A DNA stretch of 45,294 nucleotides. Source: Escherichia phage vB_Eco_AMO_3701M. Location of the stretch: sequence record PQ474795.1; one strand, 5' to 3'. Shown here in pieces: positions 13,415 through 16,050 of this stretch. Made by a program: the position numbers and the translations under genes. The notes beneath the pieces were generated by a model, which worked only from the letters and a program-made list of their open reading frames with translations, had not been told where the DNA came from and did no database searches. Position 1 is the first letter of the stretch; the number at the start of each line of letters is the position of its first letter.

Positions 13415-13440
13415 AAGGCCCCGAAAGGGGCCTTTTTCTT
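13415..13440. terminator. bidirectional rho-independent terminator
   Basis: aaggcccc gaaa ggggcctt then TTTCTT; nearly identical to terminator at 25925. Confidence 0.6.
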
Positions 13441-13993
13441 ACAAACCTAATTTTAAAGCAATGTCTATAACGTTCGATTTAACATCACCCGGTATGATGT
13501 AGGTATCGTAATCTTTTACACCATCAACGCCATACAGATAACCACGGCTGTCCCCCTCAAATGTATAGCCTTCTCGGTGCAAGCGAACGATTCTTACATC
13601 ATGACCCGCGGCGACGATAGGGGCTACTTCACTGGCGAATCCACCGTCGGACACTACAAAAACTTCGTTGCCGTCTGGCAAGTTTTCAGCAAGATACTTA
13701 CCGAAATAATCATCACCGAATACCGGTTTAATGAATTGCTCAGAAACGGCAATCATGAACTGACGACGGGACAACCCATTAAGAAAACCCTCTGGCTTTT
13801 CTTTCCGTGCCCGGTCGTCGTAGCCGTCGAGAAATTCGCGGTAAGCATCCGGGCCTAACGCTGCCAAAGCAATATCGAACATTGGATTCTTGAAACTGGT
13901 AGTTCCTTTCGCAAAGCCCATTTCTACCAGCGCCATAGCAAGTGTGTCTTTCCCGCAACCCGCCGGACCATTAAGAATAATTACCTTAGCCAT
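13439..13993 (-). CDS. deoxynucleoside monophosphate kinase (T4 gp1-like)
   Basis: P-loop ILNGPAGCGKDT with the GKDT signature; collinear matches to T4 gp1 (FDIALAALG, VFVVSDGGFASE). Confidence 0.75.
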   Translation of the reverse strand: MAKVIILNGPAGCGKDTLAMALVEMGFAKGTTSFKNPMFDIALAALGPDAYREFLDGYDDRARKEKPEGFLNGLSRRQFMIAVSEQFIKPVFGDDYFGKYLAENLPDGNEVFVVSDGGFASEVAPIVAAGHDVRIVRLHREGYTFEGDSRGYLYGVDGVKDYDTYIIPGDVKSNVIDIALKLGL

Positions 13994-14478
13994 TATTTAT
14001 CACTCCCGTGTGATTTTAAGTGTGTAGAGTTACCGTTACAGTCGTATCCAGTGACAGCGTGTGTGGTTATGCCGAGGCCTCGGAAATGCTTAATTACCGC
14101 CGGAGAATCATCGAATGCACACAAGATTCTCTCCAGCCCGATAGCACGCAACACCTCTTCTTTAATTGCGATGTCTTTTCTGTTGTCGTGTTTGCCGCGC
14201 ATGATTAGCTGATAAAATTCGACGCGGTGGCGCTGCAACCACATTCTGGTTTCTTTTTCTGCATCATCACTACGGCCCGTTAAAATAATAACGGCGTAGC
14301 GACGATTGAGGGCGTTACACAGTTCGATGTTATCTCTAATTGGTTCATCATCTTTGCACGCCATGTTAAAGGGCTTCCACGCCCACGTTTCGTTGTAGTT
14401 ATCTTTCGGCAGCAGGTGCAAACGATGCGTACCATCAGCCAATGTCCCATCTAAATCGAAAATTACAATATCTTTCAT
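13993..14478 (-). CDS. HAD-family phosphatase (dNMP phosphatase / Pnk-phosphatase-like)
   Basis: Motif I FDLDGTLAD at N-terminus; HAD fold pattern; 1-nt TAATG overlap with kinase gene. Confidence 0.8.
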   Translation of the reverse strand: MKDIVIFDLDGTLADGTHRLHLLPKDNYNETWAWKPFNMACKDDEPIRDNIELCNALNRRYAVIILTGRSDDAEKETRMWLQRHRVEFYQLIMRGKHDNRKDIAIKEEVLRAIGLERILCAFDDSPAVIKHFRGLGITTHAVTGYDCNGNSTHLKSHGSDK

Positions 14479-15608
14479 CCCAGCATCTCCGGTGAAATAG
14501 TTAAACGTGCGACCTCACCATATTCGGCGCTATAAGTAATTACATTTGCACTACGGCCTGACATCCATCCGCCGCGCGAGGCGTAGGCGTCTTTAGCCGC
14601 TAAGGTGCGGTGTTGCTCAACAATCATGTTACGGCTTTCTACAATCTTCTGATGGTGCAGGTGGCCTACGTGGGCGTAGCTGTATGTGCTTTCTCCGAAA
14701 GCCTTACGGAATTTAGAAATCATTACCGACTCTACTGGCGTCGAATCTCGCATTTATGTCCGTGTGTGCATGAATAGTGTAGTTTTCCCGTGCTGAACCA
14801 TCTTGTATACGTCGGGGGAGGTGTCCACAAATACGCGAGGTTCGTTGTCATACAATGTGCAGAACATTTCGGACAGCCATATCGGAGCCGAAGGGTCGTG
14901 GTTACCTTGGACGATTAAAAGTTTGACTGTGTGATGTTTAACCAGCGCCATATCAACAACACGGCGGACCATACGAATCATGTAGCGTACCAGTTTCTGA
15001 TAGCGAGTATCAGCGTCTAATACATGGCGACTCGCAGGGGTAACGGCGTCAAGACTATCGAAGTGAGCGAAGTCCCCAAGCAGGTTAATAACTCCTGTTC
15101 CGGCATCTGGTGCTTTCTGAAATGCTGCATCGAACCATCGGGAGAACAGGTCTTCTGCAATCTTCATGTCCCAGTCGTCGCCGCTCTCGTCGGCCCACGC
15201 CAGCATACCGAGATGGAAATCAGATACCGTGTAAAGATTGAGTAGCTTGTCGTCACGTTTGGTTCGAGTCGCTTTAACAGGCGCAACCGGTGTAATCTCA
15301 GATTTCATGCCCTCGATTACGGCTTTCATCAACTCGACCTGACGCTCGGCATCAGTGTCTGTCTTAACCCATTGCAACTTAGTGTTGCCGAACTCGTCCA
15401 CCAGAGACGACGTTCCTTTAATCTTGTATCCGTCTGGTACAAGGTGGCTAACGTCACGCCCGTGACCTACGCCTTTCTTAGCCAGTTTCGCTTTACGTAT
15501 ACGAATTACGCGGTCTGAGATGCCGTATTTACGGGCTATATCTATACTCTTCATCCCGGCGTTCAATTCTTCCTGTAATTGTTCGTCGGTTATTTTCTTC
15601 TGGGCCAT
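14475..15608 (-). CDS. HTH-domain calcineurin-like metallophosphoesterase, interrupted by an in-frame TAA at 14754-14756
   Basis: N-terminal HTH (KSIDIARKYGISDRVIRIRK); motifs SDFH, GDFAHFD, GNHD in 14754..15608; GHLHH in 14475..14753; the two ORFs are in the same frame. Confidence 0.75.
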
Positions 15609-15673
15609 GCTTACTTCCTCGTGTTTAGGATTTGTCCTATTTAACCACAGTGGATTCCTTTAAATAAAGGCAA

Positions 15674-16000
15674 CTATTTACTTTCTGCACCTATTGCCCA
15701 TCCAGTCATTACCATTTGCAGACGGGTGGCTGTCAGTAGGCTGTAAAACGCGTCTCCGTTTTTCTCTACCGAACGTATTACCGTGTATGTTACGACTTGC
15801 GGCGGCAGGCCCGATTTACCAACCTCTACAGCGGCCTCACACTCGCGAACTGTGGAATCCTTAAATGCCTTTACAATAGTAGGGTCAGCTTTCTCAAGCA
15901 CGCCAGAAGTCATAAGAACAGATTCACTAAATACCTGTTCGCACGGAGACCCAAAAGTAGCAAAAGACATAAACCCCAGAGCTAATACTAGTTTACGCAT
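15674..16000 (-). CDS. secreted/periplasmic protein
   Basis: N-terminal signal peptide MRKLVLALGFMSFATFG; GAGGAA RBS; first gene of the minus-strand island. Confidence 0.55.
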   Translation of the reverse strand: MRKLVLALGFMSFATFGSPCEQVFSESVLMTSGVLEKADPTIVKAFKDSTVRECEAAVEVGKSGLPPQVVTYTVIRSVEKNGDAFYSLLTATRLQMVMTGWAIGAESK

Positions 16001-16026
16001 AATTATTTCCTCAGTAAGTTACGGGT

Positions 16027-16050
16027 GAATAGTACCCTATTATATTGGGG
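16027..16050. promoter_or_regulatory. conserved dyad-containing divergent promoter element (copy 3)
   Basis: gaatagtaccctattatattgggg; plus-strand -10 TATATT and minus-strand -10 TATAAT; sits between divergent genes 16000(-) and 16165(+). Confidence 0.5.

Follow-up and report, generated by a model that had tools for sequence, protein, structure and literature searches.

A group of minus-strand genes interrupts the plus-strand tail genes in the DNA of Escherichia phage vB_Eco_AMO_3701M (PQ474795.1), a stretch of 45,294 nucleotides that was analysed at its full length and is called the window below. The group codes for a metallophosphoesterase with an N-terminal helix-turn-helix (HTH) domain, a HAD phosphatase, a kinase resembling the gp1 deoxynucleoside monophosphate (dNMP) kinase of phage T4, and a small secreted protein. 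The unit is real but ordinary: public annotation (the RefSeq entry of phage K1H and many Kagunavirus records) already contains its genes in the same order and position. We tentatively favour, with a little less than even confidence, the reading that it is a self-contained leftward operon, built from a nuclease-type phosphoesterase as anchor and a pair of HAD and kinase genes, and that it serves DNA turnover and nucleotide supply.

In the direction of transcription the first gene of the unit is that of the secreted protein (108 aa; 15674-16000, minus strand). It is followed on the same strand by the genes of the phosphoesterase (14475-15608; 376 aa when intact), the HAD phosphatase (13993-14478; 161 aa) and the kinase (13439-13993; 184 aa). 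The stop codon of the phosphoesterase gene and the start codon of the HAD gene overlap by 4 nt (ATGA), and the HAD stop codon overlaps the kinase start codon by 1 nt; from these overlaps the three enzyme genes are predicted to be translationally coupled. The orientation of the unit is that of the replication genes at 26-39 kb, which suggests early or middle expression. An initial annotation of this DNA had placed co-oriented minus-strand genes between a tail protein gene and the tail assembly chaperones, and both the list of open reading frames (ORFs) and the annotation of the flanks agree with it. Its assignment of a gp1-like kinase, a HAD phosphatase, an HTH protein with a calcineurin-type phosphoesterase domain and a secreted protein also holds, at the level of family, fold and signal peptide. 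It had counted four genes, however, whereas the sequence as deposited contains five ORFs: the metallophosphoesterase gene is split by an in-frame TAA, which had been overlooked.

This TAA, at 14754-14756, separates an N-terminal piece of 284 aa (14754-15608) from a C-terminal piece of 92 aa (14475-14753), both on the minus strand and in the same frame. The two pieces match positions 1-295 and 305-389 of one PHROG profile. When compared with the intact 1131-nt gene of K1H, the window and the record of Escherichia phage M01 share three one-nucleotide insertions within 31 nt (at approximately 14765, 14752 and 14735) and the same TAA. The insertions change FFHHGHKARFDAIEP to FMHTRT*MRDSTPVE (the asterisk marks the stop), so that the fourth metal-binding motif, HHGH in the relatives, reads HTRT* in the window. 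Removal of the three inserted bases yields an ORF of 376 aa, which reads FMHHGHKARFDAIES and in which the consensus HHGH motif is restored. H282-G283-H284 makes up one of the five metal-binding motifs of the protein; its H282 does not vary in either of two alignments, one of 10 and one of 56 homologues. All 12 listed relatives align over 1131 nt, as against 1134 nt in the window, and the gene is intact in K1H and in Kagunavirus 536P11, whose allele is the closest to that of the window (91%).

The possibility that the stop is genuine, with a freshly inactivated phosphoesterase, two separate polypeptides or read-through as its consequence, draws on the presence of the three insertions and the TAA in both the window and the M01 record. 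We regard it as very improbable. The two sequences are not independent of each other (see below), and the gene of phage CR01, which comes from the same submission series and is 99.4% identical to M01 here, contains none of the three insertions and instead carries a one-nucleotide deletion of its own (L177 1672-2852, annotated as two coding sequences). Essential genes are frameshifted across the window. With a genuine stop the enzyme would lack the HGH motif, including H282, a metal ligand that is invariant, and purifying selection persists in the piece downstream of the stop: substitutions relative to K1H are 27 synonymous and 3 non-synonymous there, and mostly synonymous in each gene of the unit. 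Taken together, these comparisons indicate that the in-frame stop is an artefact of assembly and not biology. Because the split is artefactual, the label 'transcriptional regulator', which the 92-aa piece bears in GenBank beside a hypothetical protein for the rest of the gene, would be wrong. Programmed read-through or selenocysteine insertion at the stop was considered and rejected, since the codon is a TAA, the 31 nt that flank it do not share the frame of any homologue, and an invariant metal ligand would be missing. Several BFVD/UniProt entries of the phosphoesterase family are fragments of 100-190 aa; split annotations thus recur in the databases.

The provenance of the window was judged from its relatives, which were sought by megablast of positions 13000-16600 against GenBank phages. 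The search returned 281 related records, nearly all of them Salmonella or Escherichia siphoviruses of the subfamily Guernseyvirinae, with the Escherichia phages CR01 and M01 as the top full-length matches. M01 (OR061069.1, labelled 'partial genome'; Guernseyvirinae, Kagunavirus-like) aligns with the window position by position over 45,294 bases, and no indel separates them. Because the two are only 92.9% identical and yet differ by no indel over this length, they cannot be treated as independent sequences. Identity varies by segment from 75% to 100%, the kinase and HAD genes being among the segments with 100%. In the phosphoesterase gene the substitutions of the window resemble the natural allele of 536P11 (91%), and its indel errors are those of M01. 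The window therefore looks like a reference-threaded or hybrid consensus and not like an independent genome.

Frame changes are widespread in both records. Many essential genes are annotated as fragments in M01, and in seven essential genes of the window the match to the K1H protein is spread over two to five reading frames per gene: those of the large terminase (1424-2673), portal (2704-4156), head morphogenesis protein (4575-5625), helicase (26600-28023), DNA polymerase (29439-31628), exonuclease (32654-33898) and primase-helicase (35883-38122). Since essential genes are frameshifted throughout, the window has to be regarded as an error-rich assembly of low quality. Neither Rfam families nor tRNA genes were found when the window was scanned over its full length.

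The phosphoesterase can be assigned to a family and a fold. The five metal motifs (DxH, GDxxH/D, GNHD/E, H(G)H and GHxH) are present across the family, and the residues D130, H132, D179, H182, N236, H237, H282, H315 and H317 are invariant in the alignments of 10 and 56 homologues. Searches of PDB sequences with the single sequence and with a profile of 10 sequences gave no significant match, the best being Thermotoga maritima SbcD with an E value of 0.4; for this reason structure prediction was needed. Modelling of a close homologue whose gene is intact (pLDDT 88.3) gave a three-helix HTH domain (residues 8-44), followed by a beta-hairpin with a helix and by the phosphoesterase core (residues 119-376). 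A fold search confirmed the phosphoesterase sandwich fold. Its top structural matches were DNA nucleases, which ranked above phosphodiesterases, and not Pnkp-type phosphoesterases. The protein is thus predicted, at the level of family and fold and in part from a model, to be a DNA-binding metallophosphoesterase of the nuclease type.

Among characterised proteins, the nucleases Mre11 and SbcD and the archaeal PolD subunit DP1 are relatives of the phosphoesterase in fold, whereas its sequence similarity to them is not significant. Mre11/SbcD complexes pair with an ATPase of the Rad50/SbcC type, and none is annotated in K1H or M01. Instead, the phage protein has an N-terminal domain composed of the HTH and the beta-hairpin, and its gene neighbours are the HAD phosphatase and the kinase. 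A fold search of BFVD returned many uncharacterised phage homologues and entries labelled 'DNA polymerase II small subunit', and no characterised member. The family is large: tblastn detected it in 2044 phage records, including phages of Escherichia, Klebsiella, Salmonella, Vibrio, Campylobacter, Flavobacterium and Rhodobacter, and among these more than 2000 records no characterised member was found. Outside the enterobacterial virulent phages the gene often lies near an endolysin gene and near ORFs that we read, by their sequences only, as those of NinB-, NinG-, Q-like, Erf-like and small-terminase proteins. In lambda, NinI presumably lies at roughly the position that the phosphoesterase takes in such lambdoid-looking contexts.

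The 161-aa HAD protein is a stand-alone phosphatase of the PNKP type, without a kinase domain. It scores 67.5 bits with Pfam family PF25109 (HAD_PNKP), for which the gathering cut-off is 27.6 (E 1.8e-18), and among PDB sequences phmmer matched it to Pnkp1 and T4 Pnk (4xrp, 5uj0), in each case to the phosphatase domain. Profile comparison with the phosphatase domain of a T4-like Pnk by hhalign covered the whole domain (133 columns; probability 99.3%, E 1.4e-20). The HAD motifs I-IV are conserved in at least 56 of 58 homologues (D8, D10, G11, T12, T67, R69, K101/K106, D123 and D124). The protein thus shares the HAD subfamily and all catalytic motifs with the phosphatase domains of T4-type Pnk (PseT) and Capnocytophaga Pnkp1, with homology over the full domain in profile comparison. 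In T4 Pnk and in Pnkp, however, the kinase is fused to the phosphatase, whereas here the phosphatase stands alone and adjoins a kinase of the gp1 lineage, not of the Pnk type. The protein was found in 1734 phage records by tblastn.

A second relative bears on its substrate. The dNMP 5'-phosphatase Dmp of phage T5 (L175 124-858) aligns to the N-terminal half of the HAD family (hhalign probability 89%, E 2e-6), and the motif DLDGT..HR is common to both. Because Dmp is a detectable relative, a mononucleotide is a possible substrate, and the HAD phosphatase of the unit may act on one. By the same alignment, the lineage of Pnk-type phosphatases appears to include a mononucleotide phosphatase, T5 Dmp.

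The kinase carries the P-loop GPAGCGKDT (residues 9-17), in which G14, K15 and D16 are invariant in 74 homologues. It matches PHROG 139, 'dNMP kinase', with an E value of 4e-45; its Pfam and NCBIfam hits were to P-loop families only, none near the cut-off, and a search of PDB sequences yielded only P-loop noise. Its fold is closest to that of T4 gp1, and not to that of Pnk-type or other P-loop kinases, and on this ground it is predicted to be a homologue of the T4 gp1 dNMP kinase at the level of family and fold; identity to gp1 (PDB 1DEK) is only 21%. A function as 5-hydroxymethyldeoxyuridine DNA kinase was considered and set aside, since gp1 matches best in fold and neither M01 nor K1H has an annotated hydroxymethylase of the thymidylate-synthase-like kind. 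The kinase was detected in 1531 phage records (tblastn). For the proteins of the unit, NCBIfam gave only sub-threshold matches to P-loop and HAD subfamily models, and the PADLOC defence models gave no meaningful match for any of the four.

The unit is shared by close relatives. K1H has the same four genes in the same order and in the same position between tail protein and chaperones, with 91-97% amino-acid identity and the same terminator; they are annotated there (gp17-gp20, ORF15-18) as ATP-binding protein, polynucleotide kinase, DNA repair exonuclease and hypothetical protein. The phosphoesterase gene occupies this slot in every Guernseyvirinae record examined, Jerseyvirus included, and 246 related records contain it. 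The genes around it vary. In K1G-type Kagunaviruses the slot contains a superinfection-immunity (Imm) gene, the phosphoesterase, the HAD and the kinase; in K1H, M01 and the window the gene of the 108-aa protein replaces Imm. The HAD and kinase genes are present in the Kagunavirus records examined and absent from the two Jerseyvirus records, those of SETP7, in which the order is Imm, phosphoesterase and a 76-aa ORF, and LP31, in which the phosphoesterase is followed by a small ORF and a gene for a DNA-binding protein.

The initial annotation had called the combination of the three enzymes an unusual trio, a description that is contradicted by its recurrence. In Webervirus Sweeny genes 062-064 follow in the order phosphoesterase, HAD, kinase and then a terminator, just before the lysis genes, and the annotation of Sweeny likens 063 and 064 to T1 gp64 and gp62. 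In this member of the Drexlerviridae the trio lies between a Dam methylase gene and the lysis cassette and not in the tail module, and the proteins are about 41-58% identical to those studied here. Yersinia phage vB_YenM_646 has the three genes in the same order just before the portal gene. A survey of Drexlerviridae from 2026 reported PNK and dNMP kinase genes as the commonest ones immediately behind the 'DNA repair exonuclease' gene, and its authors proposed that the two add to the replication module and improve the supply of nucleotides (PMC13164509). The arrangement is frequent in that family, and some members, JK16 among them, have the three genes dispersed.

Linkage was also examined in two surveys, of 80 phosphoesterase-centred IMG/VR contigs and of 80 kinase-centred viral contigs; as both sets are phylogenetically redundant, the counts are descriptive only. 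In 75 of the phosphoesterase-centred contigs neither HAD nor kinase was found within 5 kb. Around the kinase the picture was different: a HAD gene lay upstream on the same strand in 61 contigs, and in 25 the phosphoesterase was present too. Because of this recurrent linkage the HAD and kinase genes are taken as a genuine conserved pair. As far as gene neighbourhoods can tell, the pair is mobile and keeps its order in other phage lineages, and the phosphoesterase is best described as an independent gene of much wider distribution that often has the pair attached to it.

The borders of the unit are unequal in quality. At its downstream end a hairpin at 13415-13434 marks the end of the minus-strand unit and also that of the plus-strand tail gene. 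It consists of an 8-bp stem with 6 G-C pairs (AAGGCCCC-GAAA-GGGGCCTT) and has a folding energy of -16 to -19 kcal/mol. A terminator scan called it on each strand, which bears out the bidirectional terminator previously proposed here. The stem is kept in M01, K1H and the Jerseyviruses SETP7 and LP31, and the loops differ by record (GAAA, TGAC or GTTT).

At the upstream end, in a gap of 164 bp, a divergent promoter element had been proposed at 16027-16050. The minus-strand candidate is of the sigma-70 type (16029-16057; TTGCAC at 16057-16052, a 17-nt spacer and TACTAT at 16034-16029) and is followed by the ribosome binding site GAGGAA (16012-16007). It overlaps, back to back, a plus-strand candidate read straight from the sequence (16045-16072; TTGGGG, a 16-nt spacer and TGcTAAAAT with an extended -10), which would restart the tail operon. 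In favour of the proposal, CTTGCA and TA.TAT, 17 nt apart, are invariant in the window, K1H, SETP7 and LP31, whereas the bases around them differ between Kagunavirus and Jerseyvirus, and the plus-strand candidate is partly conserved in Jerseyvirus (TTAACG ... TATTCT). Against it, a consensus promoter scan found 5 sites as compared with 4.8 in shuffled sequences, i.e. no enrichment, and the minus-strand candidate matches the consensus at only 7 of 12 positions. Both candidate promoters are thus weak by consensus, and a divergent promoter element is plausible, owing to its conservation across genera.

The composition of the unit is not distinctive. Its GC content is 47.5% as against 50.7% for the window, so that it is AT-richer as had been stated, but weakly so: it lies 1.4 standard deviations below the mean of segments of the same size, at the 8.8th percentile, and elsewhere in the window the GC content falls to 41-44%. 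Within the unit the HAD and kinase genes have 45.5-46.7% GC and the phosphoesterase 49-50%. The lowest values in the window (0.41-0.45) occur at 24600-26400 and 38100-39900, together with sharp changes of GC skew; these two regions are situated at strand-switch boundaries and are far more deviant in composition than the minus-strand unit.

These data do not favour the view that the unit as a whole is an accessory island. What remains of that view is the variability of the HAD and kinase pair and of the 108-aa gene; the phosphoesterase is present in every Guernseyvirinae record examined, the composition is within the range of the genome, and close relatives carry the same genes in the same place, where the enzymes go by the ordinary names of dNMP kinase, polynucleotide kinase and DNA repair exonuclease. 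This is largely the outcome that the initial annotation had named as speaking against its view. Compared with a horizontally acquired, moron-like cassette, the unit has a solid terminator, a promoter for which conservation is the only argument, and no distinct composition.

For the flanks, the plus-strand genes upstream are those of the tail terminator (11828-12241) and of a 388-aa tail protein (12244-13410). The latter had been described as the major tail protein, in accordance with relatives, where it is annotated as major tail or tail tube protein, whereas PHROGs labels it 'minor tail protein'. On the other side are two genes of tail assembly chaperones (16165-16581 and 16680-16943) and then, from 16936, that of the tape measure protein. 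Just upstream of the chaperone gene, a block at 16076-16164, which includes GCGCCAGACGGGAACCACCCGCTTTTC in minus-strand reading, is near-invariant between Kagunavirus and Jerseyvirus and has variable flanks; across 19 Kagunavirus-type loci its identity is 91-97%. An RNA element in this leader (16076-16167) is not claimed, the folding energy being no better than that of shuffled sequences (z 0.37).

The 108-aa protein begins with MRK and a hydrophobic stretch, a typical Sec-type signal peptide. It matches PHROG 14165 (E 9e-56), in which no function is assigned, and occurs in 98 phage records, all of them of Salmonella, Escherichia, Shigella or Kagunavirus phages. In K1G, K1ind and SETP7 an Imm gene is annotated in its slot. 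Because the 108-aa gene takes the Imm position of the relatives, a role in superinfection exclusion is a reasonable guess from position, and we propose that the protein is a passenger that acts at the envelope and is unrelated to the enzymes. In LP31, a gap of 410 bp upstream of the phosphoesterase gene (L013 2590-3000, 'intergenic' in RefSeq) appears by eye to code for an Imm-like membrane protein, similar in kind to the one annotated in this place in SETP7; on this unverified reading the gap probably is a missed gene call.

Three functional options had been put forward initially, namely nucleotide-pool remodelling, nucleic-acid end healing and degradation of a host signalling nucleotide. The first, extended to DNA turnover, fits best; end healing is weakened and degradation of signalling nucleotides is the least supported. 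In the scheme that we tentatively favour, the nuclease would cut the host chromosome or intermediates of replication and recombination to 5'-mononucleotides. The phosphatase would take off 3'-phosphates that block further processing, or trim phosphorylated nucleotides. The kinase would convert dNMPs to deoxynucleoside diphosphates, from which the nucleoside diphosphate kinase of the host would produce deoxynucleoside triphosphates (dNTPs) for phage DNA synthesis. We infer that nucleotide supply from DNA breakdown is the role of the unit.

Results from other phages bear on this role. T1 and TLS break down host DNA and reuse its nucleotides, the responsible genes being unidentified (PMC11447400). 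In T5, host DNA degradation requires A1, a predicted metallophosphatase that is also sufficient for it and that acts together with Dmp, a HAD-type dNMP phosphatase (bioRxiv 10.64898/2026.04.02.716235). One early unit of T5 thus combines a metallophosphatase acting on DNA, a DNA-binding protein (A2) and a HAD nucleotide phosphatase, much as is predicted for the unit described here. The differences are that the HTH is fused to the phosphoesterase here, and that T5 dephosphorylates dNMPs for export whereas the minus-strand unit carries a dNMP kinase. Homology between the phosphoesterase and A1 is not claimed.

Several observations weigh against the proposed scheme. The phosphoesterase is usually alone, as seen in the contig survey, and it is also found in lambdoid-looking contexts, near ORFs that we read as NinB-, NinG- and Q-like and near lysis genes; for these reasons a dedicated role in the destruction of host DNA is doubtful. 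Its profile has no specific relation to that of T5 A1 (hhalign probability 11%), only the GNHD motif being aligned. Moreover, nucleases of the Mre11 type leave 3'-OH ends, and the need for a 3'-phosphatase is not obvious.

The main rival explanation is that two unrelated functions share one transcript. The phosphoesterase would act by itself in the replication, recombination or maturation of phage DNA, and only the HAD and kinase, which would have landed downstream of it in a slot that tolerates insertions, would serve nucleotide supply. We consider this rather unlikely, while noting how much of the evidence it accommodates: the 75 of 80 contigs in which the phosphoesterase is alone, the presence of other small genes downstream of it in Jerseyvirus, the slightly AT-richer composition of the HAD and kinase genes, and phage JK16, in which the three genes are dispersed, the phosphoesterase preceding the holin gene and the HAD and kinase lying about 13 kb away. 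Against it, at least three phage lineages have the three genes in the same order, with stop codons that overlap the next start codon.

A more specific version of the favoured reading makes two linked proposals: that the HTH-metallophosphoesterase is the host-DNA nuclease of T1-like and related virulent siphoviruses, and that the HAD and kinase form a dedicated pair of enzymes, a device by which the products of breakdown would enter dNTP synthesis. Taken together we hold these to be improbable. If they were true, a phosphatase of the Pnk lineage would act on mononucleotides and not on polynucleotide ends. The same device might also rescue the dNTP supply when host defences deplete nucleotides.

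Still more improbable is a function in end healing, as a split polynucleotide kinase-phosphatase, in which the HAD would act on 3'-phosphates and the kinase on 5'-OH ends of RNA or DNA left by host anticodon nucleases or toxins, and the phosphoesterase would open 2',3'-cyclic phosphates as in bacterial Pnkp. Indeed, the HAD protein is most closely related to the phosphatase domains found in T4-type Pnk and in Pnkp1, a component of an RNA-repair complex, the order of phosphatase and kinase resembles that in eukaryotic PNKP, and bacterial Pnkp joins a kinase with a metallophosphoesterase. The kinase, however, is gp1-like and not Pnk-like, the top structural matches of the phosphoesterase are DNA nucleases and not Pnkp-type phosphoesterases, no ligase or Hen1-type methyltransferase is annotated in M01 or K1H, and the tRNA scan of the window was empty.

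Least credible of all is counter-defence, in which the phosphoesterase or the HAD would destroy immune signalling nucleotides of the host (cyclic oligonucleotides or cyclic nucleoside monophosphates): the fold search ranks nucleases above phosphodiesterases, the N-terminal HTH indicates a DNA substrate, the known phage enzymes with such an activity, Acb1 and Apyc1, have other folds, and the gene is near-universal in several siphovirus groups, whatever defences their hosts carry.

The three-gene arrangement has already been described for T1-like phages. The new points of this analysis are corrective. The gene split is judged an assembly artefact, the supposed 'island' is an operon that is conserved apart from its variable passengers, the trio recurs in other phages, and the window is error-rich and tied to M01. 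For the three enzyme families as present in these phages, each found in about 1500-2000 phage genomes, our searches returned no characterised member, and they are reasonable candidates for the functions by which T1-type phages degrade host DNA and reuse its nucleotides.

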